Of a stretch of 64,000 nt of DNA, positions 30,579 through 64,000 are shown piece by piece. Position 1 is the first letter of the stretch; each line of letters begins with the position of its first letter. The notes under the pieces are model-generated. The model saw only the letters and a program-made list of their open reading frames with translations. It had not been told where the DNA came from and did no database searches. The stretch is from the IMG/VR virus record IMGVR_UViG_3300006734_000008, positions 1-64,000 of that record. The stretch is one strand, 5' to 3'. The position numbers were made by a program, and so were the translations under genes. This stretch comes from a virus.

Positions 30579-30592
30579 CTAAAAAAACAATA

Positions 30593-31070: not shown

Positions 31071-31286
31071 ATGAGTTATCGTAATAATTTAGTTAGAAAA
31101 AAGGTAATAATTGCTTTTATAGCCTTTACCCTAACCCTTTGGATAGGGGCTTCAATTACTTGGGGAGAGTCTAATGTCCTTTGTTGGCATGAGTGTGCTC
31201 CTGATGGTAGACAAGCTGTCCCCGTTGTTACTTGGATAATCTTGAATATCATACTTGTTTGGTATTATATAGTTGAAGCGGATTAA
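31071..31286 (+). CDS. small membrane protein
   Basis: 71 aa, two TM helices. Confidence 0.35.
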   Translation: MSYRNNLVRKKVIIAFIAFTLTLWIGASITWGESNVLCWHECAPDGRQAVPVVTWIILNIILVWYYIVEAD

Positions 31287-31299
31287 TACTTAATTAAGA

Positions 31300-32607: not shown

Positions 32608-32999
32608 AACGTGATGACCTATTAGAGAAATTGCGTGAGATGCAAAATTTACCTACAAGAGATGAACTGTTTCGTTGGATACAGTCTCTTCCAAAAGATA
32701 AACATCTTGGTACACCTGAACAATTCAAAGTTGGTGATATATTTATGCATCCAATCTTCAATCATCCATATGTTCTTCTAAAGAAGACAAATGATGGTTA
32801 TCTTTGTACACTTATGACTTCAGATGGTGAGTTTGCAGAGGTACTTACTCAATGTAAATCTAGGTTCTTTAGCGATTCTTTTATTGTGAAGAATCTCTTT
32901 GAACGACAAAATATCTCTCAAGATGCCTTCATGGGTATCTATGATAATAACAAACATCTGAAAGAAGTTTTAAAACAGTTACAAACCGTAATGTCATAA
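32604..32999 (+). CDS. hypothetical protein
   Basis: 131-aa ORF between ligase and kinase, overlapping stops/starts. Confidence 0.4.
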   Translation: MKRDDLLEKLREMQNLPTRDELFRWIQSLPKDKHLGTPEQFKVGDIFMHPIFNHPYVLLKKTNDGYLCTLMTSDGEFAEVLTQCKSRFFSDSFIVKNLFERQNISQDAFMGIYDNNKHLKEVLKQLQTVMS

Positions 33000-33472
33000 T
33001 GCCTAAGTTAATCATACTTATTGGACCTTCGGGCTCAGGTAAATCTACCTGGGCTCATGAGGCCCATATAAAAGACCCTAACAATGTTGTTATTGTCAAT
33101 AGGGACAAGATTCGCGAGTTACTCTTTGGTTATCTTGAAGATAACATTAAAGAGTATTACCTTCGACATGACTTTCCTGCAAGAGAGAAAGAAGTTACAA
33201 TATATGAAAATATATTGATACACAGCTCTCTTAATCTAAACAAAACAGTCATTGTTGATGCTACACATCTAAAACTCAAATACCTTAAAAGATATGATGT
33301 CTTGAAAGATAAGGGAATTGATGTGGAATACAAGTATTTCGATGCTGATATGGGTACTCTATTAGAGCGTCAGACCCTACGTATTCGTAAGGTAGGCAAA
33401 GAGATACTTGAAAGACAATTGGATATGTATCACAAGCTACAAAACAATCCTCATGCGATTAAATACAAATGA
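32999..33472 (+). CDS. pnk: polynucleotide 5'-kinase (T4 Pnk kinase-domain-like P-loop kinase)
   Basis: IILIGPSGSGKSTWAHE Walker A and downstream VNRD, closely paralleling the T4 Pnk kinase domain N-terminus. Confidence 0.55.
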   Translation: MPKLIILIGPSGSGKSTWAHEAHIKDPNNVVIVNRDKIRELLFGYLEDNIKEYYLRHDFPAREKEVTIYENILIHSSLNLNKTVIVDATHLKLKYLKRYDVLKDKGIDVEYKYFDADMGTLLERQTLRIRKVGKEILERQLDMYHKLQNNPHAIKYK

Positions 33473-34124
33473 TGGTAATATCTGGTTTACATCAGATACT
33501 CATTTTAACCATACTAATATTGTAAAAGGTATCAGTAAGTGGAAAAAGGGTGGTATGCGTGATATGAACGAAAATCTAGAGTATATGAATACTCTTCTTC
33601 TAGAGGAAATCAATAAAAGAGTTCAACCCAATGACACTCTTATTCATTTAGGTGACTTTGCTTTTGGTGATAAGACTCAGATTCCTCATTTTCTTGACCG
33701 AATTCTATGTAAAAATGTGCATTTAGTATTTGGAAACCATGACCATTGGATTAGAGCTCACTATAAACATCTTTTCAAATCAGTTCATGAATTACTTGAA
33801 TTGACAATTGTAGAGGCTCAACCAATTGTTAATGGTCGTCAACAAAAAGCTAAGAAGTATAATTTCGTACTTTGTCACTATCCACTCTTTGTGTGGAATG
33901 GTCATATGAAAGGATGGATACATCTTCATGGTCATTGCCACAATTCTATGTATCACACTACACCAGACTATTACAAACGTAAAGCTATGGATGTAGGAGT
34001 TGATACTATTTTCAACCAATTTGGATATTATGGTCCTATTAGCTATTCTCATATTATGGAACTACTTCGTAATAAAGAATTAGTCGAAGTAGACCACCAT
34101 GATGCCAATACAAATGTGTATTGA
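33456..34124 (+). CDS. calcineurin-like metallophosphoesterase (2',3'/3'-phosphatase candidate)
   Basis: Motifs DTHFNH, GDFAFGD, GNHDHW, H..GH.H; start chosen at ATG 33456 overlapping pnk stop. Confidence 0.55.
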   Translation, partial: RLNTNDGNIWFTSDTHFNHTNIVKGISKWKKGGMRDMNENLEYMNTLLLEEINKRVQPNDTLIHLGDFAFGDKTQIPHFLDRILCKNVHLVFGNHDHWIRAHYKHLFKSVHELLELTIVEAQPIVNGRQQKAKKYNFVLCHYPLFVWNGHMKGWIHLHGHCHNSMYHTTPDYYKRKAMDVGVDTIFNQFGYYGPISYSHIMELLRNKELVEVDHHDANTNVY

Positions 34125-35053: not shown

Positions 35054-35461
35054 TTGTCAAGAGTATTCAATACCTTTCGAATGAAACTCATAATTGCAGG
35101 TAGCAGAGACTTTACAGACTATGCTCATCTTAAGCATATATTGTTAAATAACTACGATATTGCTGAGATAAGTGAGATTGTCTCAGGCACTGCAAGAGGA
35201 GCTGATAGATTGGGGGAAAAGTTTGCCAAAGAGCATTCTATTCCCCTTCGTCAGTTTCCTGCAGACTGGGATAAACATGGTAAATCTGCAGGATATATCC
35301 GTAACAAACAAATGGCTGACTATGCTGATGCATTGGTAGTATTTTGGGACGGACGTTCAAAAGGAACAAAACACATGATAAATCTGGCTAACTTAGCTGG
35401 ATTAAATGTGAAAATCTTCTTATACGGCTTTGAAGCCAGTTTACAGAAGAAACTATTTTAG
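35054..35461 (+). CDS. SLOG-superfamily (DUF2493/YspA-like) Rossmann-fold protein
   Basis: IIAGSRDF...VSGTARGADRLGE...VVFWDG pattern typical of DprA/LOG-like SLOG domains common in phages. Confidence 0.45.
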   Translation: MSRVFNTFRMKLIIAGSRDFTDYAHLKHILLNNYDIAEISEIVSGTARGADRLGEKFAKEHSIPLRQFPADWDKHGKSAGYIRNKQMADYADALVVFWDGRSKGTKHMINLANLAGLNVKIFLYGFEASLQKKLF

Positions 35462-35868
35462 GGCCTGACTGGAATTGACAGGTATCTGAGAGTATATGAA
35501 CATGCAGTCAGATTGATTTACTCTGACTTGAATCTCGTAAATTAACAAATAACTGGAAACAGTTTATCTAACACTACTGTAGAAGAGTTCATCTCAACTA
35601 TGGTAGTTGCAGAGCGTGAAGTAGCAGTAGCGTAATGCAGCAGGTGTTATCCCTACCTAGGAACAGAAAAGGGGTAAAATTTAACTCGAAAAAGGATAAG
35701 GAGAGTATAAATTTGGAGTGACAGTATCCTTGAAAGACCCGTAGGTTTAGCTGTTATCACTACCCTGGTGGAGGTTGAATTCCAGATTCAGCCCTAATTT
35801 TTAAGCATGTATAATTTGTATATTTGATGTTACGCTGGACGGGGGTTCGACTCCCCTCAGGTCCACTA
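35461..35868 (+). ncRNA. ssrA: tmRNA (ssrA-like transfer-messenger RNA), one-piece, with tag reading frame GCA GAG CGT GAA GTA GCA GTA GCG TAA (AEREVAVA*) at 35609-35635
   Basis: 5' end GGGCCTGACTGGAATTGACAGG parallels E. coli GGGGCUGAUUCUGGAUUCGACGGG; 3' end CTGGACGGGGGTTCGACTCCCCTCAGGTCCACTA gives T-arm GGGGG-TTCGACT-CCCCT and acceptor 3' strand pairing the 5' GGGCCTG; resume codon GCA preceded by TAGTT (E. coli has TAGTC GCA); tag ends VAVA then TAA. Confidence 0.7.
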
Positions 35869-35880
35869 AAAACTTATGAA

Positions 35881-36414
35881 ATGGCTAGTTTAAATCGAGG
35901 GCTTAGAAAGCTCAAAAGAGTTGTCAAACAGGTTACAAGTAAAAGACAAGATGTCTTAAAACCTTATGAACAACAACTAACTGATATTCTTGGGCACGGC
36001 TGGGCTGTTGTCAGAGATTACGGGAATGGTTATACCTTTAAGTTAAACTATGGGTATGATTACTCAAGTAGGCAGACTTTCAGATTACTCACTCTTAGTG
36101 GTAAAGTAATTTCAGAATTTACCATGAGACAAATGCCCGGATGTTGTGGAATAGTTGTCTCTACAGGGTCTACTGTAGACCCAAAGTACAGAGGTAAAGG
36201 TATTGGTACTATTCTTAATGAACTTCGTAAAGACATAGCGAGAGCTAATGGATTTGGATGTTTAATGTGTACCACTATCCTCAGTAATACACCACAACAA
36301 AAAATTTTGGAACGTAATGAATGGGAACTCGTCAATACGTTCAATAACCCTAGAACAGGGAATGATTTAGGAGTTCATATTTACAATCTCAATGAACAGG
36401 ACCGTAACACATGA
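35881..36414 (+). CDS. GNAT-fold acyltransferase-like protein
   Basis: GCCGIVVSTGSTVDPKYRGKGIGTILNEL resembles GNAT motif A (R-x-x-G-x-G); real start taken after tmRNA 3' end (MASLNRG). Confidence 0.45.
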   Translation: MASLNRGLRKLKRVVKQVTSKRQDVLKPYEQQLTDILGHGWAVVRDYGNGYTFKLNYGYDYSSRQTFRLLTLSGKVISEFTMRQMPGCCGIVVSTGSTVDPKYRGKGIGTILNELRKDIARANGFGCLMCTTILSNTPQQKILERNEWELVNTFNNPRTGNDLGVHIYNLNEQDRNT

Positions 36415-39906: not shown

Positions 39907-40430
39907 TGAGCAGAGATAGTAGAAGATTTAGGGCAGCTATACTTCCTTATTTCAGAGAAGAGTATCATCCACAAATCCAAGTTGAAATAACAACAAACAG
40001 ATTCAGACTAGGAACAACAGGTTTGGATGTGTTAATAGGGTTTAATATAACTACTCTTGCAGGTTCATGTGGTACAAAGTTCATTTCTCAATATGCTATG
40101 AACACAGAAAGATTGAACATTATGTTAGACTCTAGAAGAACTACAAAAAGTCTTCTAGAACGTATCTTTTCTGAATTCTATAAGCCTATGGAGGATATAT
40201 GGTCACTGAAAAGGGCAACTGGGCAATTTCTCATGTCAAATAATGAGATAAAAGCTCCAGAATTTGCAGCAGATGTAAGGAAAATTGCAAATAAGATTCA
40301 GGAGAGTTACAATCCTAATTCAAAAAGGAAAGTGACTATCTATGTTATTGATTTAGGTATATGCAAGAAAAGGATAGAGTCCAAAAAGAAGCATTACAAG
40401 CAGTCACGTCGCAAGGCGGTAGTGGCTTAG
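39906..40430 (+). CDS. hypothetical protein
   Basis: 174-aa ORF. Confidence 0.4.
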   Translation: MSRDSRRFRAAILPYFREEYHPQIQVEITTNRFRLGTTGLDVLIGFNITTLAGSCGTKFISQYAMNTERLNIMLDSRRTTKSLLERIFSEFYKPMEDIWSLKRATGQFLMSNNEIKAPEFAADVRKIANKIQESYNPNSKRKVTIYVIDLGICKKRIESKKKHYKQSRRKAVVA

Positions 40431-41466
40431 TAGCTATGGCTACAGGAACTGGTAAAACAAAAGTAGGAATTGACTACGTTGAATTGCTAAAGAACAAGGG
40501 AAGAGGAGAATCCTTTGGGTTGTACCCACAGAGAAACTCCGAGATGAAGGGATTAAACAAGAATTTGTTAAGTGGGGTTCTGATTTCAGCAAAGTCCATC
40601 TCGTATGTTATGCCAGTCTCAACAAACTAGAGGGTTATGAATTTGACCTAGTAGTTCTTGATGAATGTCATAGAATTACTGAAAACAATTATCAATTTTT
40701 TCAACAGAACAAGGTAGGAAATACCATTGGTTTGTCTGCAACACCACCTCATGAAGAGGTTAAAAGGTCATTGTTAGAGTCTATTGGTTTAAAAGTGGTT
40801 TACCATTTACCATTAGATGAAGCAGTTGCTTTAGGAATAGCAGCACCATATAAAATCAAGATTATAGAGTCTTTCTTAGATGATAAAGAGAAGTATATCT
40901 TAGCTGGTAATAAGAAGAATCGTTTTTATACGACCGAAATGCAGCAGTATCAATACTTGTCTAATCAAATAAGGAGAATAATGTTCTCAGGTAAGGATGT
41001 ACCTAAGTACTTATACCTTAACAGAATGAGATTTATCTATAATTTGAGAAGTAAGCATAATGTAGCCACTAGGTTATTGGCTTCACTTCCAAAAGAAGAC
41101 CGAATCCTTATATTCCATAAATCAATTCCTAGAATTGATGAGTTGTGTGCTCACACTTTTCATTCTAAGACTAATGATGAGGCATATAAGAAGTTCATAG
41201 AGGGCAAAATAAGCCGTTTAGGAGTAGCTGATAAGGTCAATGAAGGTACTAACATACCTAATGTCGATAAAGCCCTTGTAGTGCAATTAAATAGCCAACC
41301 AAGAGAACTTATCCAACGTCTTGGACGTATCGTAAGATGGAGAGAGGGACATCAAGCAGAATTTTATATTATGCAGGTGTTACAAACTCAGGATGAGAAA
41401 TGGGTAGCTAAAGCATTGCAGGACTTAGATGGACCTGTTGAATACATAAATGCAAAAAACATTTAG
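40361..41466 (+). CDS. SF2 DExH-box helicase, interrupted by a -1 frame change near 40483-40520
   Basis: Motif I MATGTGKTK in frame of 40361; motifs Ia ILWVVPT, II DECH, III SAT, VI QRLGRIVRW in the frame of 40732; both frames are open across 40483-40630. Confidence 0.55.
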
Positions 41467-42122
41467 TGGAACAACTGAACGTTTATGTTGTAGGAGGAGC
41501 TTTAAGCTATATAGGTGTCTTAAATGGCTTAGATATTAAGCCTAGAGATACTAAAGTACTAACTGAGGCAGATTTAGTTCTGTTTACTGGTGGTGCTGAT
41601 GTGTCACCTAAGTACTATGGTGAAAAGTTTCACCCAACAACATATGCAAACCCAAAACGTGATGAATTAGAGGCAAGAGTCTTTGCTATGGCATCAGCTA
41701 TGAAAATACCTATGTTGGGTATTTGTAGAGGTTCGCAGTTTCTTACAGTCATGAATGGTGGAAAACTAGTGCAAAATGTGTCCAGTCACGCAATGGTTGG
41801 AAAGCACTCAGTTAGATTCAATAAGAAGAATAATGGCGTTAAAATTGCCATGACTTCTACACATCACCAAATGATGTATCCATATAATCTACCAAAGGAT
41901 GAATATGAATTAGTTGCTTGGGCAGAACCAAGCCGTAGCTCCTTGTATGAGCGTGGTGATGGAGAAACCTATACTGTTCAAAATGAGCCTGAGATAGTTT
42001 ACTATCCAAAAAGTAACTCTTTGGCTATTCAAGGACATCCAGAAAGACAACTCAGTGATGGAATTGTCATGGGAGTAATGGGTTACATCATCAACAAGTA
42101 TCTATTTGATGAAATTCTTTAA
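41466..42122 (+). CDS. class-I glutamine amidotransferase-like / peptidase C26 (gamma-glutamyl hydrolase-type) protein
   Basis: Catalytic triad context GICRGSQFL (Cys) and IQGHPE (His-Glu). Confidence 0.55.
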   Translation: MEQLNVYVVGGALSYIGVLNGLDIKPRDTKVLTEADLVLFTGGADVSPKYYGEKFHPTTYANPKRDELEARVFAMASAMKIPMLGICRGSQFLTVMNGGKLVQNVSSHAMVGKHSVRFNKKNNGVKIAMTSTHHQMMYPYNLPKDEYELVAWAEPSRSSLYERGDGETYTVQNEPEIVYYPKSNSLAIQGHPERQLSDGIVMGVMGYIINKYLFDEIL

Positions 42123-45954: not shown

Positions 45955-46007
45955 TCTGAACAGTAAGTACTTAATCAGGGACTCTCAAAAGGAGTCCCTT
46001 TTTTTGT

Positions 46008-46973
46008 ATGAAAGACCAAATACTTAAGCGAATAACCCAGGAGGATATCTATGCCAGATACTTTCCTGATGAGATAGCACTCCAGACAAGGTATTGTAAT
46101 CCTACTAGAATTGATAAAAATCCAGATTGTTATTTTACATATATCAATGACAGATTGATGTTTGTAGATTTTGGGGGAGACCCTACACATATGGATTGTT
46201 TTAGGTTCATTCAAGAATACTTTGATATATCATTCTATGAGGTATTAACTATCATCTCTAAGGACTTTGGTCTAGGCTTACATAAAATTGAATCATTAGA
46301 TGAAGAAATTGTAACGCCTCAGACAAGAAAAAAACTTGTCCTGAACAAACCTACGCAAGTAGAGAAAGAGACAGTAATCAAAGTAGTGAATCAACCCTTT
46401 CAACGGGCTGATTTGGATTATTGGGCTCAATTTGGGATTAGCCTAGAGACATTAGTTAATTACAATGTCAGGGCTGTCTATCGCGCTTGGATTAATGGAG
46501 ACTTTTACCATGAATACAAAGCTTATGACCCAATGTATAGATACAAAGAACAAGATAAGTTCAAACTGTACAGACCATTGGCAGATAAACGTTATAAGTG
46601 GAGAACTAATATGTCAGGTGGCGTATTAGAAGGGTGGTCACAACTTCCTGATAAGGGCAATCTTCTGATTGTCACTAAGTCTAGGAAAGATGTGATGACT
46701 TTACATGAGTTAGGCTATGCTGCTGTAGCAGTTAGGTCTGAATCATCTCCTGTATCTGAAAATGCTGCAGCATTATTGAATCAGAGATTTGGTAAAATCA
46801 TTCTTTGGTTTGATAATGATAAAGCAGGTATTAAGTATTCAGACAAACTAAGTGATAAATATGGTTGGGAGACCATTAGTTTTCCAACTGGATTTCCAAA
46901 AGACCCGTCAGACTATGTTAAAGACTACGGGCAAACTGAACTTTTAAATTTCATTAAGAACATTTATGAATAA
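46008..46973 (+). CDS. DNA primase (TOPRIM domain)
   Basis: TOPRIM signature LLIVTKSRKD...E...ILWFDNDKAG; N-terminal Cys/His cluster. Confidence 0.55.
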   Translation: MKDQILKRITQEDIYARYFPDEIALQTRYCNPTRIDKNPDCYFTYINDRLMFVDFGGDPTHMDCFRFIQEYFDISFYEVLTIISKDFGLGLHKIESLDEEIVTPQTRKKLVLNKPTQVEKETVIKVVNQPFQRADLDYWAQFGISLETLVNYNVRAVYRAWINGDFYHEYKAYDPMYRYKEQDKFKLYRPLADKRYKWRTNMSGGVLEGWSQLPDKGNLLIVTKSRKDVMTLHELGYAAVAVRSESSPVSENAAALLNQRFGKIILWFDNDKAGIKYSDKLSDKYGWETISFPTGFPKDPSDYVKDYGQTELLNFIKNIYE

Positions 46974-47721
46974 TATATTCACATTAGGAGCAGACCCAGA
47001 AGCATTTCTGTATAATACAGACCTGGAGATGTATGTTCCTTCCGAGTTGTATTTTCATGGCACTAAGGATGAGCCAGAAGATTTAGCACCAGGCTATGCC
47101 GTATTATGTGATAATCTAATGGTTGAATTTAACATCCCGCCAGCAAGTACAAAGTTGGATTTTGTAGCTAATTTGAACCAAGCTATTGAATTTATCCAAC
47201 AAAAACTACCAGAAGAGGTAGAAATCAGGTTCAACAACTCGGCAGTGTTCAGTGATAAAGCATTGCAATTCCCAACAGCTAATATGTTTGGATGTGCTCC
47301 ACAAGAGAACATGTACAACATTATGCTGTTATGTCCCGATGACTTCCCACCAAACGTGAGATTTGCAGGTGGACATATTCATGTAGGAATGAAGATTAAT
47401 AATCTCAAAAAGATGATTAAGCTCTTTGACCTGCATATTGGATTGCCTTTGGCTGCTGCTGAACCTCGTACAGAACTCTCTAGGAGAGATATCTATGGTG
47501 CTCCAGGCACTTATAGAACTACCTCTTATGGTTTTGAGTATCGCACCCCTTCATGTGAATGGTTACAAAGTAACGACAAGATTGAGTGGGTATGGGATAG
47601 TGTGGAGAGGATTGTCGAAGACTACCACAATGAAGGAATATTTTTACCTGATGACAATGAAGTCTTTCAGGCATTTGAACAGCCAGAATTGGCTAGGGAA
47701 TTAATTGCAGATTACGCATGA
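46966..47721 (+). CDS. GS-like carboxylate-amine ligase (amidoligase-type) protein
   Basis: E-x-E-like NLMVEFN, GGHIHVG (H-x-H), GFEYRTP (E-x-R) as in glutamine-synthetase/GCS2-like amidoligases. Confidence 0.4.
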   Translation: MNNIFTLGADPEAFLYNTDLEMYVPSELYFHGTKDEPEDLAPGYAVLCDNLMVEFNIPPASTKLDFVANLNQAIEFIQQKLPEEVEIRFNNSAVFSDKALQFPTANMFGCAPQENMYNIMLLCPDDFPPNVRFAGGHIHVGMKINNLKKMIKLFDLHIGLPLAAAEPRTELSRRDIYGAPGTYRTTSYGFEYRTPSCEWLQSNDKIEWVWDSVERIVEDYHNEGIFLPDDNEVFQAFEQPELARELIADYA

Positions 47722-48071
47722 GAATTGCTGTATATGGAACACTGCGAAGAGGTTGGGGAAACAATCGCTTATTAGCAGACTCAAAGTTTGTTGACGCAGG
47801 AAAAACAAAGGAGAAGTATACTATGTATGCTAGTGGGATACCTTTTGTATCATCACATAAGCCTACATCTAATATTCATGTAGAAGTATTCGATGTTCCT
47901 GAAGAAGATGTACCAAGAGTAGATGGGTTAGAGGGACACCCAAATTGGTATCAAAGAAGACCCATACAAGTAATACTTGATTCTGGAGAAGAAACAACTG
48001 CAGAATTGTATTTTATGGATGGAGAAAGAGGTCTCCCTGTTGTAGAAAGTGGAAACTATGAAGACGCCTAA
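47718..48071 (+). CDS. gamma-glutamyl cyclotransferase-like (AIG2/GGCT fold) protein
   Basis: N-terminal IAVYGTLRRGWGNN matches YGSL-x-x-G-x-x-N GGCT signature; 117 aa. Confidence 0.55.
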   Translation: MRIAVYGTLRRGWGNNRLLADSKFVDAGKTKEKYTMYASGIPFVSSHKPTSNIHVEVFDVPEEDVPRVDGLEGHPNWYQRRPIQVILDSGEETTAELYFMDGERGLPVVESGNYEDA

Positions 48072-48879
48072 ATTTAAATACGTTAGAATACGTTCAAGAC
48101 ACCCATCACATGAAGTTTTAAGAAAGAATCCTTCCTTAAGATTTGATGGAAAGTCTGTATTTCGTCTTGGCAGCACTACGCAGGTAGATGTTCCTCACGA
48201 AATCAATACCGTTGAAGCTGTTAAAGTATCTTCAAATAAACTGAAGATGAAAGAAGCTTTCAAGAATGGTAAGATACAAAGCCCAAAGATGTACACCATT
48301 ACAGACCCTTTTAATACTGCTGAGATTGAAAAATATCCATTAGTAGCTAAGAAAGTTCTTGGTAGTAGGGGACGGGGTATGCAGTTCATTGAGAATGAAG
48401 AGCAATTACTACAATTCTTTAATGGTAATACTCAAGGATACTACTTAGAGCAATACTTTTCAGGAGCTAGAGAGTATCGTTTACATGTTTCAGCACTTGG
48501 ATGCTTCTATGCTTGCCGTAAGCTTAGAAAATCTGATGCTGAAGAGAGATGGTATTTCAATTCAAACAACTGTATCTGGGCTACAGAGAAAGAACAAGAG
48601 TTGGATGAGGATGGGAATTTCGTAAAATTCACTAATGTGGATTCTGAACAATTCAATAAACCAACTACTTGGTGCCAAATTGTAGCACAATCACAGAAAG
48701 CTTTATCTGCGGTAGGGCTTGATGTCGGAGCAGTTGATGTTAGAGTTAACACTAAAGGAGACTTTCAAATCTTGGAGACTAATTCAGCTCCTTCATTTGG
48801 TGAGAAGACTACTTTGATGTATCTCGAACACTTACCGCAACTCATGAATCATAAATACGGACTCAATCACAAATCATAA
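48049..48879 (+). CDS. ATP-grasp ligase (RimK/glutathione-synthetase-like)
   Basis: YPLVAKKVLGSRGRGMQFI (K-x-x-GS-x-G), E-x-N-type C-terminal motifs LETNSAPSF. Confidence 0.55.
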   Translation: METMKTPKFKYVRIRSRHPSHEVLRKNPSLRFDGKSVFRLGSTTQVDVPHEINTVEAVKVSSNKLKMKEAFKNGKIQSPKMYTITDPFNTAEIEKYPLVAKKVLGSRGRGMQFIENEEQLLQFFNGNTQGYYLEQYFSGAREYRLHVSALGCFYACRKLRKSDAEERWYFNSNNCIWATEKEQELDEDGNFVKFTNVDSEQFNKPTTWCQIVAQSQKALSAVGLDVGAVDVRVNTKGDFQILETNSAPSFGEKTTLMYLEHLPQLMNHKYGLNHKS

Positions 48880-50921
48880 TGTTAAGTTTATTTATCTTTG
48901 CTTTTGCCTTAGTGAATTTTATTTCACTCCTAATATTTAAGGGTAAGAGTAATGTGTTAAGTTGCGGATTAGGCGCATATAATGGTAAAGTAAAGCCAAA
49001 CGAACTCCTTCTCAAAGTTATTGGACAATACAATGAAGAAAGAGGTATACACTCTTGCGGAATTGCTGTCAACAATTTCATTGATGTAGGAGTAGGAAGT
49101 ATTGCACGTTTTAGGAATTTTGTCAAAGACTTTGACTTTCCTAAGATGACAAAGACCTTCAATGTAATCCTTCACACAAGGAAAGCAACTGTAGGTGCAC
49201 ACACTAAAGAGAATGCCCACCCTTTTGGGTTTGGGTGTGATACTGATGACCCAGAAGTTCCAGATGAAGAGGTTGGATACAACTTTATTGGAGCACATAA
49301 TGGAAGTCTCATAGACTGGAGAGACCTTACAAAGGATATTGAAATTCCTGAAGAGGTAACAGTCAATATGGATTCACAAGCTCTCCTTTACCGCTTATAT
49401 CATGATAAGAACTACAAGGTTCTGTCTGAGTATAAAGGAGCTGCAGCTCTTATCTTCTATAACTCGAATAATCCTGATAGGCTCTATGCCTTTAAGGGGG
49501 CAGCGGGTGATGATGAAGAAAGACCGCTGTACTATGTTCAGTATGTGAATAGTAGAGGTAAGGTTACTGGTGTATATCTATCTTCTATGAAAGAACCATT
49601 TGAGTTCGCTGGACTTAAAGACATCAAAGAAGTTCCTAACAACACTATCCTTACTTTTGAAGGTGGTGAAGTTATCAATGAGCTTAAAGTAAAAAGAGGC
49701 AAGGAATTAAGTACAGCATATGCTCGTAACAGTACAGCTGTAACAACAACTCCTTCTACGAGAACTAATGCCAGAGTTTCTCATTCAGGAGCACGTCAAA
49801 TTCCTATCAGCACTTTCACAGGTTCAGCCAAGGCTCATCAACTTCTTTTAACCCCAAACGAATATTTCGTGGGCAGCCATATCGTAGGCGGAAAGATTTA
49901 TTACCGTTGCGGACGTTACTTCCGTAATGGTCATTTAATCAATGGTATATGGCTTCTTCGCGAAGATGGTGAACAACTTGGATGGTATATGACTCAAGCT
50001 GTAGCCAATAAAGGTTTGAGGGATTTCCGCAAAAAGTACAATAAGAATAAGAAGAAGGATAAACTCAATGCTTCACTATATTACTTTGCAAAAGGTATTA
50101 TGTGTAAGGACTTTGAGGCCATGAATGATGCTAATGCAATGTTAGATGAGAATAGTACACGTTTAGGTGATTTATCTAAATGTTCGATATATCCCATCAC
50201 CTTTGTAGCATCAACTAATGATAACTATAGAGTATCTTCTTATCCTGCTTGGGACGGTAAACTAACTTTCAGTGCTAAGTTTAAGCCAGAATTTAGTTTA
50301 TACACCTTTGAGTACAATAATGGATACTTGGTAGATGTACAACCTGTGGACAGTAGAACTCCTTTCTTTGAAACTTTCTTAAAAGGAATGGATTTGAATA
50401 AAAAAACTAAGGCTTCCTTAGATTTCAAAGACATTTTTTCAGAATTGTTAGAGCCAAAAAAGGAGAAGCCCGTAGAGAAGAAGACACCTACGACTTCTGG
50501 GCAGAACTCTACGGATGGTATGCTCCAACAGTCTTCAGAGCTTAGTGCAGAAGAGGAGAAAGCAGCTCAGGAGCGTGTTGATGCCCTTATCAATGAGAGT
50601 TGGGATAAGTTCACAGAGACTACAAACTCTGATTGGACAGATATGGACGAAATTGCCATTGCACAAAGTCTTGACCAAGCTGAACAGCTAGTTCAAACTT
50701 ATGCAGAAGGTATGGGTCTATTTGAACCTGACCAAGTAGGTTATGAGATTAGTACAAAGCTTTTAGAAGCAGCGTATTATATAGCCAAGAAAGTTCAAGA
50801 GATTGGAGATGACTGTGGGTATGTATTTACTGATACAGAAACAGACCAACTTAAGTTAATTATCATGTCATATGAAATTTTAGAACATGTCGAAGGAAAC
50901 AAATTCAAAGAAGATAAGTAA
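48879..50921 (+). CDS. class-II (Ntn) glutamine amidotransferase domain protein with about 400-aa C-terminal extension
   Basis: SCG near N-terminus, ILHTRKATVG...ENAHPF and GAHNGSLID matching PurF/GlmS/AsnB glutaminase motifs; N-terminal 27 aa hydrophobic, true start uncertain (propeptide or misassigned). Confidence 0.5.
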   Translation: MLSLFIFAFALVNFISLLIFKGKSNVLSCGLGAYNGKVKPNELLLKVIGQYNEERGIHSCGIAVNNFIDVGVGSIARFRNFVKDFDFPKMTKTFNVILHTRKATVGAHTKENAHPFGFGCDTDDPEVPDEEVGYNFIGAHNGSLIDWRDLTKDIEIPEEVTVNMDSQALLYRLYHDKNYKVLSEYKGAAALIFYNSNNPDRLYAFKGAAGDDEERPLYYVQYVNSRGKVTGVYLSSMKEPFEFAGLKDIKEVPNNTILTFEGGEVINELKVKRGKELSTAYARNSTAVTTTPSTRTNARVSHSGARQIPISTFTGSAKAHQLLLTPNEYFVGSHIVGGKIYYRCGRYFRNGHLINGIWLLREDGEQLGWYMTQAVANKGLRDFRKKYNKNKKKDKLNASLYYFAKGIMCKDFEAMNDANAMLDENSTRLGDLSKCSIYPITFVASTNDNYRVSSYPAWDGKLTFSAKFKPEFSLYTFEYNNGYLVDVQPVDSRTPFFETFLKGMDLNKKTKASLDFKDIFSELLEPKKEKPVEKKTPTTSGQNSTDGMLQQSSELSAEEEKAAQERVDALINESWDKFTETTNSDWTDMDEIAIAQSLDQAEQLVQTYAEGMGLFEPDQVGYEISTKLLEAAYYIAKKVQEIGDDCGYVFTDTETDQLKLIIMSYEILEHVEGNKFKEDK

Positions 50922-52758
50922 GCTCACAAAAGTGGAAGCCTATGACCAAAATATGAATCTACAAAAGGTTCCAAGGTCTGAAACTAGGTTTATCAAGGGA
51001 GCATACTATATCATTGACAAAGGATGTGTTCTGATGTCAGATGGTCAATGGTACAGAGTAAATCATCCTAATATAATCTTTGATGAGGCAACTGGTACAT
51101 TTAAATTCTTTCAGGATACTGCTGCCAGACCTTACATCAAAGACTTTGTGGATGGTAAATATGTGATTGCATATAGTAGTAAAATACCAACGAATGCTGC
51201 AGATAATATTTTTGATTTGTATTATGGTGGAAACTTTGGTAATACTACTGGAATGAATAGTGTTTACATTGCAAAGGTTATAAAACCAATGTTCCATGAT
51301 GAACAGGTTCAGAAGATGTGTGATTGTTATGGTAGAAGAATTGAAATTTATGTTCTTCCTATAGCAAGTGAAGCAGTCGAAAAATCTGGAGCTATCAAGG
51401 AACCTCGCAATGGATTCTATGTTCCAGCACTTCCAAAAATTGTAAGAAGGTTATTCAGAAAACCTACTCGCAACCAAGGAAACATCTACACAAAAGCGTT
51501 ACAGTATAATGTTTCAACTTCTGAATATTACAGGAAGAAGGCTGAGGCAGGTTATGCAGCTAACACTTTGACACCAAGTAAAACTCTTTTAGAGGTTGCA
51601 GAACATTTACAAGGTCGTACATTTGGTGTAGAGATTGAAACAGTGTCTGGACAAATCCCAGAAGATACTTTAGCTAAGTTAGGATTTCTTCCACTAAGAG
51701 ATGGCTCTCTGGATGGTGGTATTGAGTATACCTCAATTCCATTTTCAGGAGCTAAAGGTCTTGCAGTTATGAAAAAATTCTATACTGAGATACAGAATCT
51801 CTGTAGAGTAAATGAGATGTGCTCTTTCCACGTTCACTTCGGTGGATTTGAAAGAAGTAAACTCAATGCTCTCACACTGTACAAACTGTGCTACAGACTG
51901 CAGGAGGAAATGTTTGATATGATTCCACCATACAAAAAAGATTATAGATATTGGACAAGTAAGAGACAGACAAAAGACCATTGTCAATCTTTGAAAAGCT
52001 TGAATCTGAATCTTGACCGTATTGATACAAACAAGGCAAGAATGAAAGTAGAGTTTAACAAATTCTTTGAGTTCTTGACTGAAGGTTCTAAGGAGAATCA
52101 ACGTTTCAATTGGGATAACAGACATTCTCCTAAAGAGGGGGCAAACAAATGGAATCTTAATTCCAGATACTTCTGGGTTAATTTCTTACCGTATGCCTTC
52201 CTTCCTCAAGAGACTGTAGAGTTCAGAATCTTCAATTCTCCAATGGATTTTAACACAGCTCTGAATTACTTACTCATTTCCAATGCTATTCTATCTTATG
52301 TAGAAGACCACGGAGATATTGTAAGGGACAATAGAGAGAAAATTACATTGGAAGATGTAATCAGTTCTGCATATCCTGAGGCTTTTGCTAACAAAATCCT
52401 TGATTTTATCAATGACAAACGTCAGCAATACCATAAGGATTTCATCGGTGATAATATCTATGCTGAAATTGAAAGGTCTAATGCTCCATATGAAATTGAT
52501 AATCTTAGTGATGCTCAATTAGATAAGAGAATTAAACTTCTCCAAAATCTACCGCCTGAGGTTGAACCTGAAAGGGAAGCTCCTCAGAGAATGAGACCAC
52601 AAAGATTTGCAGTAAATATGGAGGCAATTCGTATAAATGCAGAAGAGGCTTTTCACCGTGTGGAAAGAGAGAATGCAGAACTAAGAGAGCAACAAAGGGT
52701 TAATCAAAATCAAGTAAATCAAGATGATTTTGGCATCTTTGATATAAACGATGAGTAA
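50887..52758 (+). CDS. GS-like amidoligase family protein (large)
   Basis: GVEIETVSG (E-x-E), CSFHVHFGG (H-x-H), central fold features resembling Amidoligase_2/glutamine-synthetase-like enzymes; 623 aa. Confidence 0.4.
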   Translation: MSKETNSKKISKLTKVEAYDQNMNLQKVPRSETRFIKGAYYIIDKGCVLMSDGQWYRVNHPNIIFDEATGTFKFFQDTAARPYIKDFVDGKYVIAYSSKIPTNAADNIFDLYYGGNFGNTTGMNSVYIAKVIKPMFHDEQVQKMCDCYGRRIEIYVLPIASEAVEKSGAIKEPRNGFYVPALPKIVRRLFRKPTRNQGNIYTKALQYNVSTSEYYRKKAEAGYAANTLTPSKTLLEVAEHLQGRTFGVEIETVSGQIPEDTLAKLGFLPLRDGSLDGGIEYTSIPFSGAKGLAVMKKFYTEIQNLCRVNEMCSFHVHFGGFERSKLNALTLYKLCYRLQEEMFDMIPPYKKDYRYWTSKRQTKDHCQSLKSLNLNLDRIDTNKARMKVEFNKFFEFLTEGSKENQRFNWDNRHSPKEGANKWNLNSRYFWVNFLPYAFLPQETVEFRIFNSPMDFNTALNYLLISNAILSYVEDHGDIVRDNREKITLEDVISSAYPEAFANKILDFINDKRQQYHKDFIGDNIYAEIERSNAPYEIDNLSDAQLDKRIKLLQNLPPEVEPEREAPQRMRPQRFAVNMEAIRINAEEAFHRVERENAELREQQRVNQNQVNQDDFGIFDINDE

Positions 52759-53710
52759 GGAGTATTACGAAAGTGAGTCAGTTTCACAGACTAGACTCAA
52801 GAAAATTTGTAATCATCCAATGTCATATAAACTATATAATCCATTTGGGGAGAGTTCAGCTTTAACGCTGGGCTCCCTCGTGGATTGTATTCTTCTAACT
52901 CCTAATGAGCTAGAGGAAAGATTTATTGAGCTAGAGGATAACAGTATACCTACAGCAATAAAGTCTATATGGGATGAATTTTACGAACACTGTGAAGTAC
53001 TGGGAAATTTTGACTATCAAGGAGTCATTGAAGAGGAGCTTCTACATAACATTATTGAAGCTCAAGGATACAGACTAAAGAATAAAAGAGCTACTAGGCT
53101 TAAGTTTGTAATAGACAATGCACAATACTTTGAGAATAAAGTCAAAGCCCGAGGAAAAACTGTTATAGATAGTGAAACTTTAGCTAAGGCACATGAGATT
53201 TGTGAGTCTATCATGAATCATCCTTTTACAAGTCATGTGATACCATCAGCTACAGAAACACAAGTAGCTATCTATTGGAGATTCAAAGACTATGATATTG
53301 AATTAAAGTCTCTTCTTGATTTCATTGAAATTGATGAAGAGAACAAAACAATTCAACCATGGGATTTGAAGACTACTGCTGGTTATACCAGTAAGTTTCA
53401 TGAAGCTATTTATAAATTTAGGTATGACTTCCAAGCTGCTTTCTATACTGCAGCATTGATGTTTGCATATCCAGACTATACAATTTTACCATTTAAGATT
53501 CTCGTAGAAAGCACTACTCGTATAGGTGCTCCTATGATATACACACTATCAGATGAAGCTCTCAAAGTAGGAGCTTTTGGTGGCGAAATAGATGGTGTAT
53601 ATTATGAAGGATGGATGAATTGCCTTGATACTTTGGCATGGCATTTAAAAGAAAACGTTTGGGATTATCCTAAGTTTGAGTACGAACAAAAGGGACAAGT
53701 CACAATATGA
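52751..53710 (+). CDS. putative PD-(D/E)xK exonuclease (YqaJ/lambda-exo-like)
   Basis: D...IEIDEE...WDLKT pattern consistent with D-x(n)-E/D-x-K core; 319 aa. Confidence 0.3.
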   Translation: MSKEYYESESVSQTRLKKICNHPMSYKLYNPFGESSALTLGSLVDCILLTPNELEERFIELEDNSIPTAIKSIWDEFYEHCEVLGNFDYQGVIEEELLHNIIEAQGYRLKNKRATRLKFVIDNAQYFENKVKARGKTVIDSETLAKAHEICESIMNHPFTSHVIPSATETQVAIYWRFKDYDIELKSLLDFIEIDEENKTIQPWDLKTTAGYTSKFHEAIYKFRYDFQAAFYTAALMFAYPDYTILPFKILVESTTRIGAPMIYTLSDEALKVGAFGGEIDGVYYEGWMNCLDTLAWHLKENVWDYPKFEYEQKGQVTI

Positions 53711-54343: not shown

Positions 54344-54799
54344 ATGAAAACACTATTTCTTTCGCTGCTGTTGGCAGTGGGTATCATGTGTTCTGCCCAA
54401 GTAAGGGTCCATGAATACCAAGACGCAAGTGTTGATGTAGTATTTAACTCTGGAGGAGAACAGATGCTGCATTACACTTACAATCAAGGATTTTTCCACA
54501 ACAATCTGTTTGGATTTAACTATAGGGTCTCCTATGGTGCATCCACAACATTGCAAGACCAATTTTGGTTTCAGGCAGGTATTCAATACAAGCTTGACAA
54601 GAAGCTATCTCCATACGGGCAGACCTTAACCCTGTATCCCTTATGGTTTAGAGGCTACATTGGCTCAGATTATGAGACACCAATAGGCTTAGCATACGGA
54701 TATTATGGACATCCTCACTTCAAAATAGATTTTATGGTGAATTATCATGACTACGGTTTGGATTATTCACTAAGATTAGCTAAATTTGTAAAGTGGTAA
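54344..54799 (+). CDS. secreted beta-rich protein, outer-membrane beta-barrel-like
   Basis: Signal peptide MKTLFLSLLLAVGIMCSAQ, alternating aromatic/polar beta-strand pattern, C-terminal ...FVKW. Confidence 0.4.
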   Translation: MKTLFLSLLLAVGIMCSAQVRVHEYQDASVDVVFNSGGEQMLHYTYNQGFFHNNLFGFNYRVSYGASTTLQDQFWFQAGIQYKLDKKLSPYGQTLTLYPLWFRGYIGSDYETPIGLAYGYYGHPHFKIDFMVNYHDYGLDYSLRLAKFVKW

Positions 54800-60935: not shown

Positions 60936-63900
60936 CTAGTCGTAGATTTCTAAAATCTTAATACCATTCTCAGGATTCAACATGTAACCATTAAGACCAA
61001 GTAGTTTCATAAATGCTACATTGATTTTAGGGTCACCCTTTTCTGCAAGGTTTCCAAAGATGGTTTTATAGTTCTCATTTCTTTGATAGTAGGCTGTATT
61101 TTGACCAAATAGAGTTGGTCCAATAAGCCCTGTTGTACGGAATAATTTTTCCCCAACTGACCAGATAGGTGAAGGAGTACGGAAACTCTTCAATGTACCA
61201 CCTGGATTTAGTGGGAATCCCCAAGTATTGATACTACCTAATCCAAAGTTGTAGAAGGAAAGTTCTGATTGTGCTCTCATAGACCAATACAGTGCATACT
61301 TCATACCTAAAGTCATTCCAATACCCCTCTCATCATCATCGTCAGCATCCTTTAATCCTGCTGCTAATAATGCAGCTATACTTGACAGTAGTAACATATA
61401 AGTTATCTCAGCTGCAGTTCTTTTAACATTTGCAACTTCCTGTTTAGTAAGATTGTGTGACTGATTAGTTAGAAGATTCCATAATTCATCTCTTTCTGAA
61501 ATCAATTTACCAAAGAATGTTCTGTAATAACCTTCATATTCTGCACCTAACTCATAATCATAGCCCCAACCCTGGAATCTTCTTCTTACGTTGGGAGCAA
61601 TAAACTTACGATACATCATAAGTAGTCTACCTGCATTATGACGTTCAATCAATGGTCTATCAAATGAATTGTATACACCATTGAATCTCTTATTCAGTGC
61701 ATGAATTTTTCGTTCAGCTTCGTGGTTGAGGAATTCTACACCAGGTTGTACGGCCAAATTACCATCCTTATCTACACTATAAGCATCATACAGAGAAATG
61801 GTTTTACCACCTGCTGTTTTTACTTTAGTGTCTTTTAAGATGGACATCATCACTTTAACTTGGGCAGCGTGTTCACCCTTATGCATAAAGGAGAACCAAC
61901 CTTTACTTCCCCACATTTTCTTTACTTTACCTTGAGACATCTTACGACCGTATTCATCTATAAACTCTCCTTGTAAAGCATCGTATAATTCAGCTAACTG
62001 TCCAATCTTAGACTTCTTGGCTGTACCCAACATATCAGACATAAAGCCAGGCTCATTCTTTCTGTATTCAGCCTTAGCCCAGAACCATGTCTTTGTTGAA
62101 AAATGCTCTCCTGACCAAGCATCAATAGCTGTAGATATATGTGCAGCCATTGAGTTCGCCACAGCAAGAACAGGATTACCACCAATTTGTGTGAATGATG
62201 CAAATCCCATTAGAGCATCTGTTATTTTATTCCAGTTGACACCACCAGCATTAGACTTCAATCGAGTCTTACCGTAGATGTGCATATCTATAAGAGCTTC
62301 CAACATAGCAGCAGTATTATTACCTTTATGCTTACGGAAGTACTCTCCTAAGAATTTATTACCAATCTTGGTATCTTTTAATTTATCTTCAGCAGAATGT
62401 AGTGGCCCTTTTTCACTAACTGTTTTAGATAGAGCTTTAGCTACAGGTTCTAATTGTACCTGTGCTGCATGTTTATTAGCTGCAGCATAATAAGTAAGGA
62501 CAGAACCCATAAGGTCAAGAGATGTATTCTCCATACCTAAGTCAAGCTTATATAGATGAGGAATAATCTTCCTATCCTCACCGTATTCTTCTTGCTCATT
62601 AGGTAAGAATCTAGTAGCACCTTCCCAAGTCCTTCTTAACCAACCTTTAGTATCACCTTCTCTAACCCTGTCATTGGCAATTTTCTCAATACCAGGTAGG
62701 CGATACATCATTGGAGTATCTTGAATCATTTGTTGACCTGATAAGTAAGTGGATAATAGGAACTTATAGTATTTCTCTTTAGCTCCACCATCCATTACTG
62801 CATTCCATTTCTCATTACGGAACATATCCCAGTTAGGCATAGTAACTTCTTTACCAACTGCTTTTGTTCCTTCAGGAGTAACCACAAAGTTTTTGTCGAA
62901 CCACTCTTCATAAGAAGTAGTGGATGCTTTTGCTTCACGAATCTTTGCATGATATCCTTCAATAAGTACAGCTTTTTCACCAGGCTTATATGGATTATCA
63001 ATTGTGATATCCTCAGCCTCTCTTGAGACTCTGTATCCTTTTTCTACTGCCATCTTTTGTAGTAGTTGATATTTTAAAGTAATCTCATTTGCTTCTGCAT
63101 ATATAGGGTTAGTAGTTTTTAATATTTTAGCTTCTATTTCTGCCTCTACAGCCAAGTCTTTCATTGCCTTACTGTAAGCATTATAATCAAGCTTTTGTAC
63201 AAATGAGTAATATTGTTTATCTCCCTCCTGAATTACTTCATAGAATGGTTTGTTAAACTCTTTAACATTATCTCTAGATACACCAGCTTTCTTTGCATAT
63301 TCATCAAAAGCCTTAGCTGCAATCTTTTCTACACCGAACAGATGCTCTCTAACCTTATCAAAAGCTTCTTTCATATGCAGAGCAAACGTAGCAATGATAC
63401 TGTTATTAACACTAACAGCAGGATTAAGATGAGCAGACATAATAGAAATGTCTTTGTAGTCACCAGTGTTTAGCATTCTAAGAATAGACTCTTTAGATTC
63501 ATAGTACTTATCCTCAATACGAGCTAGTCTATTTTCTAATCCCCTTCTACGTCTATCTGACAATTTCTCATTAGTCAGTTTCTTTTTGATGATTGCAATC
63601 TCTTCAGCAAGATTACTCTTCTTATCCTGATTAGGTAATTGTTCTGAAAGGAGTTCAGCCAATATAGGATTAACCCTATTCTTAGAGATACGCTCAACTC
63701 TATTGAACTCAGAGATAATCTTATCTAACATATCCAATACGGAATTATCCTCTCTTGGAATATCTTTAGAGTTTTCATATAGGTTCTGTAGTTCCTCTAC
63801 AATACCTCTGAATAGGTCTTGTTCAGACTTAAATAAGTCAAGTTGTTGTAGGATATCAGCAGTTGAGATGTCCTTATCAGTATCAATTCTATCAACAAAA

Positions 63901-64000
63901 GCTTGGAATCTTTTAGCTAAACTGTTCTTATCAGTTACAAACTCTTGATGCATATACTCAATGAACTCAGCTATTTGACTGAAGTCATTACCAGTTTGAA
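60936..64000 (-). CDS. large virion-associated protein, partial (tape-measure-like candidate), continues beyond window
   Basis: ORF over 1005 aa still open at window end; coiled-coil-rich N-region, hydrophobic segments near C-terminus. Confidence 0.35.
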   Translation of the reverse strand, partial: QTGNDFSQIAEFIEYMHQEFVTDKNSLAKRFQAFVDRIDTDKDISTADILQQLDLFKSEQDLFRGIVEELQNLYENSKDIPREDNSVLDMLDKIISEFNRVERISKNRVNPILAELLSEQLPNQDKKSNLAEEIAIIKKKLTNEKLSDRRRRGLENRLARIEDKYYESKESILRMLNTGDYKDISIMSAHLNPAVSVNNSIIATFALHMKEAFDKVREHLFGVEKIAAKAFDEYAKKAGVSRDNVKEFNKPFYEVIQEGDKQYYSFVQKLDYNAYSKAMKDLAVEAEIEAKILKTTNPIYAEANEITLKYQLLQKMAVEKGYRVSREAEDITIDNPYKPGEKAVLIEGYHAKIREAKASTTSYEEWFDKNFVVTPEGTKAVGKEVTMPNWDMFRNEKWNAVMDGGAKEKYYKFLLSTYLSGQQMIQDTPMMYRLPGIEKIANDRVREGDTKGWLRRTWEGATRFLPNEQEEYGEDRKIIPHLYKLDLGMENTSLDLMGSVLTYYAAANKHAAQVQLEPVAKALSKTVSEKGPLHSAEDKLKDTKIGNKFLGEYFRKHKGNNTAAMLEALIDMHIYGKTRLKSNAGGVNWNKITDALMGFASFTQIGGNPVLAVANSMAAHISTAIDAWSGEHFSTKTWFWAKAEYRKNEPGFMSDMLGTAKKSKIGQLAELYDALQGEFIDEYGRKMSQGKVKKMWGSKGWFSFMHKGEHAAQVKVMMSILKDTKVKTAGGKTISLYDAYSVDKDGNLAVQPGVEFLNHEAERKIHALNKRFNGVYNSFDRPLIERHNAGRLLMMYRKFIAPNVRRRFQGWGYDYELGAEYEGYYRTFFGKLISERDELWNLLTNQSHNLTKQEVANVKRTAAEITYMLLLSSIAALLAAGLKDADDDDERGIGMTLGMKYALYWSMRAQSELSFYNFGLGSINTWGFPLNPGGTLKSFRTPSPIWSVGEKLFRTTGLIGPTLFGQNTAYYQRNENYKTIFGNLAEKGDPKINVAFMKLLGLNGYMLNPENGIKILEIYD

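Follow-up and report, generated by a model that had tools for sequence, protein, structure and literature searches.

Phage gene cassettes that bring amidoligases together with glutamine amidotransferases were reportedly predicted by computation in 2009, by Iyer, Abhiman, Burroughs and Aravind in Mol Biosyst, who are said to have proposed that a change to the wall of the infected cell serves superinfection exclusion. The cassette is now of an already known kind, with annotated examples in Cellulophaga phage phi14:2, cr108_1, RIO-1 and the PA11-like and LUZ24-like phages. In its phiEco32-type form (the Pfam family PF14395 is named after phiEco32), a COOH-NH2 ligase type 2, an Amidoligase_2 protein, an ATP-grasp ligase, a class-II glutamine amidotransferase (GAT-II), a gamma-glutamyl cyclotransferase and a class-I amidotransferase are encoded on one strand among the early or replication genes of tailed phages. 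All six families, in the same kind of setting, are shared by the stretch of viral DNA analysed here, positions 1 to 64,000 of IMG/VR record IMGVR_UViG_3300006734_000008 (the window, 64,000 nucleotides in length). On balance, we regard this locus as probably being a complete six-gene phiEco32-type amidoligase cassette in a crAss-like phage, amide-ligating in function and part of the replication (early/middle) module. Later phage genome papers annotate or mention the cassette as a cell-wall modification or auxiliary metabolic module; that of RIO-1-like podoviruses has been called a 'peptidoglycan modification cassette' (PMC5498523), and the cell-wall hypothesis is carried in both PMC10580990 and PMC5498523.

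A six-frame listing of open reading frames (ORFs) reproduces the six genes of the initial annotation, five of them consecutive and a class-I glutamine amidotransferase gene upstream, at the same positions and all on the + strand. The consecutive genes encode a phiEco32-type COOH-NH2 ligase type 2, a carboxylate-amine ligase of the glutamine-synthetase (GS)/GCS2 fold (46966-47721, 251 aa), a gamma-glutamyl(amine) cyclotransferase of the AIG2/GGACT fold (47718-48071, 117 aa), an ATP-grasp ligase (48049-48879, 276 aa), the GAT-II protein (48879-50921, 680 aa) and a GS-fold Amidoligase_2 protein (50887-52758, 623 aa); the upstream gene (41466-42122, 218 aa) encodes a class-I glutamine amidotransferase or Peptidase_C26-type gamma-glutamyl hydrolase. 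Pfam and PHROG matches agree with the families proposed for all six, and the suggested correspondence to computationally predicted phage peptide/amide-ligation systems holds in that the families are the same and annotated relatives exist. The start and stop codons overlap as described, by 4 (ATGA), 23, 1 (TAATG) and 35 nt in order, and 8-nt overlaps join the two ends of the cassette to a primase gene upstream (46008-46973, +) and a PD-(D/E)XK exonuclease gene downstream (52751-53710, +), which places it inside the replication module.

The only strong terminator-like site on the + strand between 41000 and 55000, a pattern match only, is a hairpin at 45977-45999 (9-bp stem, 5 GC, followed by a T-run) that directly precedes the primase gene, and the terminator pattern scan found nothing comparable within the cluster. 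Because a strong hairpin stands before the primase and none like it lies inside the cluster, the primase, cassette and exonuclease genes are probably carried on one transcript, with the hairpin as the likely upstream boundary of the transcription unit. A scan for sigma-70 promoters was uninformative (fewer matches than in shuffled sequences), and Bacteroidota-type promoters lie outside its coverage.

The structural genes of the window (major head protein, portal, large terminase and tail lysozyme) are on the - strand, and a long + strand block holds genes for a DNA polymerase, helicase, RecT-like protein, primase, exonuclease and ribonucleotide reductase. The best deposited relatives of the terminase are just 34% identical and belong to crAss-like phages of Flavobacterium, Cellulophaga and Bacteroides; the 5.8-kb cassette region has no megablast match among 50,697 deposited phage records, and proteins identical to those of the two large cassette ORFs are encoded on a metagenomic contig of 102,410 bp. 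On these grounds we take the window to be about two-thirds of the genome of an uncultured, deep-branching crAss-like phage, that is, ~64 kb of ~102 kb with ~38 kb lying outside, and the host is probably a member of the Bacteroidota.

The closest described arrangements are those of phi14:2 (g037-g041) and cr108_1 (gp028-gp034), both Crassvirales of the Steigviridae, in which the cassette likewise comes right after the primase gene and before repair/exonuclease and ribonucleotide reductase genes. No paper in the searchable literature joins 'crAss-like' with 'amidoligase'; the GenBank records of phi14:2 and cr108_1 do carry annotations. phi14:2 further shares with the window a leader on the GAT-II protein, a middle domain behind its glutaminase domain and an N-terminal domain on the amidoligase. 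The proteins of the two phages are, however, only 28-29% identical to those of the window, with no DNA similarity and a permuted gene order. No C26 gene was found within the stretch of phi14:2 examined. The GAT-II protein of cr108_1 begins directly with Met-Cys-Gly and so lacks a leader, and neither a GGACT gene nor a middle domain was detected in that phage. Compared with the phiEco32-type cassette at large, the window differs in gene order, in a GAT-II protein that has a leader, a conserved middle domain and a helical tail, and in an amidoligase with an extra N-terminal domain; the GAT-II proteins of RIO-1 and the PA11-like phages are shorter, with no middle domain detected.

The three ligases are predicted, from their intact active-site motifs, to be ATP-dependent carboxylate-amine ligases. 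The COOH-NH2 ligase matches PF14395 (E = 7e-15, 55 bits versus a cut-off of 25) and phrog_3815 (1e-43), and tblastn finds homologues in 310 deposited phage records. The catalytic motifs that the initial annotation expected of its two GS-like proteins are present in both: D10xE12, H137xH139 and E191xR193 are invariant in the alignment of the COOH-NH2 ligase, and E249xE251, H315xH317 and E445xR447 of the Amidoligase_2 protein fall within positions invariant across 23 homologues (G247xE249xE251, R271-D-G-S, C312-S-x-H315xH317, R427-Y and T443xE445xR447). The latter protein matches PF12224 (9e-7, 29.4 bits versus a cut-off of 22) and phrog_2443 (3e-15), and its profile has no match among PDB sequences. 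It consists of a conserved, beta-rich N-terminal domain of ~100 residues (residues ~1-100), a catalytic region (residues ~240-480, nt 51604-52326) and an acidic tail. The ATP-grasp ligase matches phrog_2599 (8e-25); its Pfam matches are weak, with CPSase_L_D2 alone passing (20.8 versus a cut-off of 19.8), and its invariant residues comprise K64, a Gly-rich loop (S106xG108xG110), E142-Y-R and the Mg-site residues D230 and E243.

The GGACT and Peptidase_C26 proteins belong to families whose studied members cleave gamma-glutamyl amides. The former matches PF06094 (6e-22, 79 bits) and phrog_2520 (7e-30) and retains the motifs YGTLRRG (residues 6-12) and DGLEG (residues 69-73). In one IMG/VR locus (L022, 2398-3885, +) a single open frame fuses a GGACT domain (residues 11-118) to a COOH-NH2 ligase domain (residues 233-487), which argues that the two are functionally linked. 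The C26 protein matches PF07722 (3e-21) and phrog_7218 (2e-46), with its nucleophile Cys in GICRG (residues 85-89) and its His and Glu in GHPE (residues 190-193). Since a C26 gene abuts the GAT-II gene in two metagenomic relatives (L006 and L007) and is present in 35 of the 57 loci surveyed below, the upstream gene of the window belongs to the system, as had been suggested when it was named as a partner.

Several of these proteins recall gamma-glutamyl pathways. In PuuA/PuuD, BtrJ/BtrG (butirosin) and EgtA/EgtC (ergothioneine), a ligase adds gamma-glutamate to an amine, and the gamma-glutamyl handle is later removed by a C26 hydrolase, a gamma-glutamyl cyclotransferase or a GAT-II-type amidohydrolase. 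The best solved relatives of the window C26 protein are Lin1909, a 'probable glutamine amidotransferase' (7d4r) and the gamma-glutamyl-GABA hydrolase PuuD. The likeness has limits, in that the matches are far below equivalog cut-offs and the cassette has no linked gene for a carrier protein, a decarboxylase or a sulfoxide synthase.

The cassette could be read as a phage gamma-glutamyl cycle that makes, amidates and recycles a small compound, either a gamma-glutamyl peptide or a gamma-glutamyl-amine; examples would be thiol peptides resembling glutathione, gamma-glutamyl-polyamines and the polyglutamyl tails of cofactors. Its purpose would be redox supply, the handling of polyamines or the synthesis of nucleotides while the phage replicates. 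We hold such a soluble metabolite to be a serious minority possibility, nearly as likely as the envelope target discussed below. The enzyme set mirrors glutathione and gamma-glutamyl metabolism, with a GCS2-type ligase, an ATP-grasp ligase, a GGACT protein and a C26 protein closest to PuuD. The best solved match of the ATP-grasp ligase is glutathione synthase, at an E-value of only 0.005, and MptN and CofF, which add glutamate to cofactor tails, are among its nearest NCBIfam models, all of them far below cut-off (the others being a pseudomurein ATP-grasp protein, RimK and LysX). A glutaredoxin gene follows the cassette in RIO-1, a ribonucleotide reductase gene lies downstream in the window, phi14:2 and cr108_1, and half of the GAT-II subfamily has no membrane leader. 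However, none of the proteins scores as a GshA, GshB, PuuA or PuuD equivalog in NCBIfam (31.9 with the PuuD model versus a cut-off of 266), and the two GS-fold ligases have no NCBIfam match. A soluble product would also leave the hydrophobic leader unexplained, and a tripeptide requires less than three ligases plus amidation. The E. coli and Pseudomonas hosts of cassette phages, moreover, already produce glutathione.

The same ligases could instead act on a protein of the host or the phage, tagging it with glutamate or a short peptide, with the GGACT and C26 proteins as erasers, a reading that we consider unlikely. RimK, which polyglutamylates ribosomal protein S6, and PafA, which attaches Pup, are models for such chemistry; the GS-fold ligases include the Pup ligase, and GGACT acts on gamma-glutamyl-epsilon-lysine. 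The ATP-grasp ligase matches a PHROG annotated as 'ribosomal protein S6 glutaminyl transferase', with the RimK family sub-threshold. No conserved small substrate protein is found within the window cassette, however, none recurs across loci, and a glutamine amidotransferase has no obvious role in tagging. In a directed-evolution study of a Pseudomonas phage, two descendants of one ancestor both acquired missense mutations in the amidoligase and GAT-II genes (PMC11450229), the only experimental hint found. Having arisen under host-range selection, these mutations are compatible with modification of a protein, and they suggest a role of the cassette in host interaction.

The match of the GAT-II protein to PF13522 (GATase_6; 2e-7, 31.5 bits versus a cut-off of 27) is confined to residues ~29-220, or to ~280 at most, and falls within the N-terminal nucleophile (Ntn) glutamine amidotransferase domain (residues 29-280; 48963-49718, +), for which the predicted local distance difference test score of the structure model is mostly >90. 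C29-G30, H99-T-R101, N141-G142 and D165 are invariant in 25 sequences, and the domain is predicted to be a class-II glutaminase with intact glutamine-binding residues. An N-terminal Cys had been anticipated for this protein, and an invariant Cys-Gly does align with Cys1 of mature PurF and GlmS, from which the profile alignment starts (E = 8e-18); the position was not as anticipated, since the nucleophile is residue 29 of the ORF, not residue 2, with no Met codon before Cys29.

The 28 residues that precede Cys29 (MLSLFIFAFALVNFISLLIFKGKSNVLS; 48879-48962, +) form a hydrophobic, membrane-helix-like leader and putative propeptide. It has a Kyte-Doolittle 18-residue maximum of 2.58, residues 2-20 are modelled as a helix and basic residues follow the helix. 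Comparable leaders (26-35 residues, Kyte-Doolittle values of 1.9-2.7) are present in 16 of 25 close GAT-II homologues, in phi14:2 g040 and in 12 further IMG/VR loci, all of which have COOH-NH2 ligase and ATP-grasp genes. The crAss-type GAT-II subfamily comprises at least 438 clusters at 50% identity; among 153 full-length representatives of the subfamily, 59 (~39%) have the leader and 79 start Met-Cys-Gly. The leader thus recurs in independent lineages. The searchable literature holds no description of a leader before a GAT-II Cys, of an extra domain after the glutaminase or of the N-terminal domain of the amidoligase.

Because an Ntn glutaminase requires a free alpha-amino group on its Cys, the leader-bearing GAT-II proteins would have to be made as proenzymes. 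A precedent is the B. subtilis PurF propeptide, which has 11 residues, is not hydrophobic and is removed to free the N-terminal Cys. The window protein resembles PurF in having its catalytic Cys behind a putative propeptide and in keeping the glutamine-site residues, and mature PurF starts at the aligned Cys; it differs in that leaders of the window type are 26-35 residues long and helix-forming, and in the absence of a phosphoribosyltransferase domain. The residues before the Cys fit neither signal peptidase I nor signal peptidase II, and the leader would therefore probably be removed by self-cleavage, as in B. subtilis PurF. A lipoprotein or Sec signal peptide was considered and rejected: the -1/-3 residues (F, Y, P, N etc.) are unsuited to either peptidase, the basic residues come after and not before the hydrophobic core, and the partner enzymes need ATP and glutamine. 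With the basic residues C-terminal of the leader helix, the positive-inside rule would place the catalytic domain in the cytoplasm.

A separate peculiarity of the GAT-II start is seen in the PA11-like Pseudomonas phages and in a group of IMG/VR contigs (L010 at ~6001-6070, L011 at ~6001-6135, L026-L029 and L038), in which ATT or ATC precedes the Cys and the stretch from the upstream stop to the Cys holds no canonical start codon. In the deposited records of O4 and FBPa8 the annotated start is 60-130 nt downstream, so that the nucleophile is omitted. These starts may reflect non-canonical initiation or a mis-annotated start.

The long extra C-terminal region noted in the initial annotation is resolved by the structure model into a disordered linker, a well-modelled alpha/beta 'middle' domain (residues ~325-495; 49851-50363, +) and a variable, acidic helical tail (residues ~557-673; 50547-50897, +). 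Matches to the middle domain are found in 653 cluster representatives and nearly always follow a GAT-II domain in the corresponding place; the middle domain has no Pfam match and no detectable relative among solved structures, and in BFVD it matches solely the phi14:2 and cr108_1 orthologues. In the surveyed loci it is detected only where the N-terminal domain of Amidoligase_2 is also detected, and several loci have the N-terminal domain alone. It is possible from this distribution that the two domains interact. Homology between them was rejected (hhalign probability 0.4%).

To follow the cassette across viruses, IMG/VR was scanned with an alignment of the amidoligase, giving 80 loci, and counts were made on the 57 with at least 7 kb of upstream sequence, the ORFs of which were searched with hidden Markov models built from our own cassette alignments. 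A search for related loci with a single amidoligase protein as the query gave no match. The GAT-II gene lies directly upstream of Amidoligase_2 on the same strand in 57 of 57 loci. Partners on the amidoligase strand are ATP-grasp (44/57), COOH-NH2 ligase (43/57), GGACT (37/57) and Peptidase_C26 (35/57). All six families are present in 20 of the 57, always amid replication genes, and 11 loci carry just the GAT-II/amidoligase pair, seven of these with a GGACT gene. Since these 11 loci hold only that pair, GAT-II followed by Amidoligase_2 is the invariant core of the cassette, and the recurrence of the same families on one strand in 57 independent loci shows clustering far beyond chance. The cassette genes also occur together in the Pseudoalteromonas phages RIO-1 and Slicky01, Pseudomonas phage O4 and Leptolyngbya phage Lbo-JY46, and in the metagenomic relatives L004-L007. 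In 18 loci (L035 and 17 others) the amidoligase gene is followed, ~1.5 kb from its start, by a second, short GAT-II-like ORF of ~250 aa.

Recurrent neighbours across ~90 loci are DnaB helicase (64), a Sak4-like ATPase (45), primase (42) and exonuclease (29). Hypermodification of a nucleotide or DNA base would explain this constant siting among helicase, primase and exonuclease genes: the ligases would couple a base or a nucleotide precursor with an amino acid or amine, and the product would be amidated to protect the phage DNA. Such a route would have no relation to the hydroxymethyl-pyrimidine and deazaguanine pathways already described. Some other phages have thymidines that carry amino acids, PurF is the closest match of the GAT-II domain, and a phosphoribosyl pyrophosphate (PRPP) synthetase gene is beside the cassette in Lbo-JY46, near it in Slicky01 and present in the window. 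We nevertheless judge this reading improbable. A DNA base was among the candidate substrates of the initial annotation, and the scanned gene content lends it no support: the Pfam and PHROG searches of ~45 window ORFs, which come from ~64 of the ~102 kb of the genome, revealed no gene for a pyrimidine (dUMP) hydroxymethylase, a 5-hmdU DNA kinase, an amino-acid:pyrophosphoryl transferase, a DNA transglycosylase or deazaguanine synthesis. The pathways known to hypermodify thymidine employ different families of enzymes, and we know of no report of hypermodified DNA in phiEco32 or LUZ24.

Outside viruses the amidoligase type is rare in the sequences scanned. Among 185,579 bacterial and archaeal species genomes, one relative was found, on a contig of a metagenome-assembled genome, and the other scan found none, the sensitivity of the pattern scan being limited; within these limits, the type seems nearly confined to viral sequence. 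This bears on a role as generic nitrogen auxiliary metabolic genes, put forward for a Planctomycetes phage (PMC10945688), in which the cassette would enhance glutamine/glutamate assimilation by the host. The families involved do handle glutamine and glutamate, but no cassette protein reaches a housekeeping equivalog, and a specialised product is indicated by the strict linkage of the six genes, by the extra domains dedicated to the system and by the near-absence of the type outside viral sequence. Such a role is very unlikely.

We return to the reading that we prefer, an amide-ligating cassette acting at the membrane. The GAT-II protein would be made as a proenzyme, held at the inner membrane face by its 28-residue hydrophobic leader. 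Removal of the leader, probably by self-cleavage, would free Cys29 as the N-terminal nucleophile, and the active glutaminase would hand ammonia from glutamine to Amidoligase_2, which would activate a carboxylate as an acyl-phosphate and convert the carboxyl to a carboxamide. The COOH-NH2 ligase and the ATP-grasp ligase would contribute one residue apiece, probably a glutamate joined by its gamma- or alpha-carboxyl, and the GGACT protein and C26 hydrolase would remove or recycle gamma-glutamyl groups. As the target we tentatively and slightly favour a membrane-associated cell-envelope peptide such as a lipid-linked peptidoglycan precursor, at a probability well short of even, and a target outside all the readings considered here takes the remainder. 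Modification of the envelope would alter the wall of the infected cell. The GAT-II protein may be a glutaminase proenzyme that is tethered to the membrane, activates itself and amidates lipid-linked precursors of the wall.

Peptidoglycan amidation elsewhere relies on one class-I (GatD) and one class-II (AsnB1/LtsA) amidotransferase; in MurT/GatD and AsnB1/LtsA, a glutaminase is paired with an ATP-dependent activator of a stem-peptide carboxylate on a membrane-bound precursor. The window cassette resembles these systems in logic only and is not a member of them: no Mur-ligase or asparagine-synthetase domain is found in its proteins with Pfam or NCBIfam, and the activators are of the GS fold and ATP-grasp type. 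The envelope target draws support from the leader, from this parallel of class-I and class-II amidotransferases and from the published hypothesis. The proposed mechanism is also consistent with PuuD being among the best solved relatives of the C26 protein, with the restriction of the leader in the IMG/VR survey to loci with COOH-NH2 ligase and ATP-grasp genes and with the role in host interaction suggested by the missense mutations of the evolved Pseudomonas phage.

Several observations weigh against this reading. Neither a Mur-ligase, a transpeptidase nor any other enzyme of peptidoglycan accompanies the cassette, whose recurrent neighbours all encode replication proteins, and the C-terminal domains of GAT-II could not be tied to any type of acceptor. 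The leader is missing in about half of the subfamily, which starts Met-Cys-Gly, as well as in cr108_1 and RIO-1, so membrane tethering cannot be essential to the chemistry; cleavage of the leader and its membrane topology are inferred from sequence. GGACT-type enzymes need a gamma-glutamyl group with a free alpha-amino group, and the peptidoglycan stem peptide offers none. In line with the initial annotation, which named candidate substrates only, we found no assay of any cassette enzyme in the searchable literature, in which all cited functions are predictions. Finally, amidoligase and GATase genes are reported in a putative virus of Poseidoniales, archaea without murein, the host having been assigned computationally (PMC11706807).

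Further features of the window lie around the cassette. Downstream, between the exonuclease block and a NinI-like phosphatase gene, a 151-aa ORF (54344-54799, +) has a signal-peptide-like N-terminus (MKTLFLSLLLAVGIMCSAQ) and a Tyr/Gly/Phe-rich body, with no Pfam match. Just upstream of the C26 gene, a superfamily 2 (SF2) helicase gene (40361-41466, +) is split over two frames, with the Walker-A part at 40361-40630 and the remainder in a frame open at 40483-41466. Its closest relative, in L004 (489-1487), is a single 332-aa ORF spanning both parts (40% and 59% identity); a frameshift, recoding or an error of assembly may account for the split. Upstream of the DNA polymerase gene are a YspA-related SLOG-domain protein (35054-35461, +; PF10686, 6e-15) and, 10 kb from the cassette, a GNAT acetyltransferase (35824-36414, +); GNAT-fold enzymes can also be amide ligases. 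The region at 30327-34124 (+) looks like a tRNA/RNA repair module, with tRNA genes for Arg-tct and Leu-taa followed by an RNA ligase (31300-32607), an AAA_33 kinase (32999-33472) and a phosphoesterase (33408-34124). At 27424-29807 (+) a PRPP synthetase gene (phrog_619, 1e-31) is directly followed by one for nicotinamide phosphoribosyltransferase (phrog_448, 6e-188), an NAD+ salvage pair; in Lbo-JY46 the PRPP synthetase gene adjoins the cassette directly, and in Slicky01 PRPP synthetase and nicotinate phosphoribosyltransferase genes lie ~3 kb from it. A 1005-aa ORF without PHROG or Pfam match (60936-63953, -) coincides with a sign change in the GC skew.

The cassette is widespread, occurring in therapeutic Pseudomonas phages, marine phages and gut crAss-like phages, and the searchable literature holds no identification of its product since the 2009 prediction. 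For that question the window is no more tractable than existing culturable phages. What it adds is the complete six-gene form in a deep-branching crAss-like lineage, and a hydrophobic putative propeptide before the catalytic Cys that offers a handle on localisation and activation; the survey built on it pins the invariant core to the GAT-II/Amidoligase_2 pair. Identity of the product would show how many phages rewire host glutamate/glutamine chemistry, whether for the wall, a metabolite, protein tagging or DNA protection.

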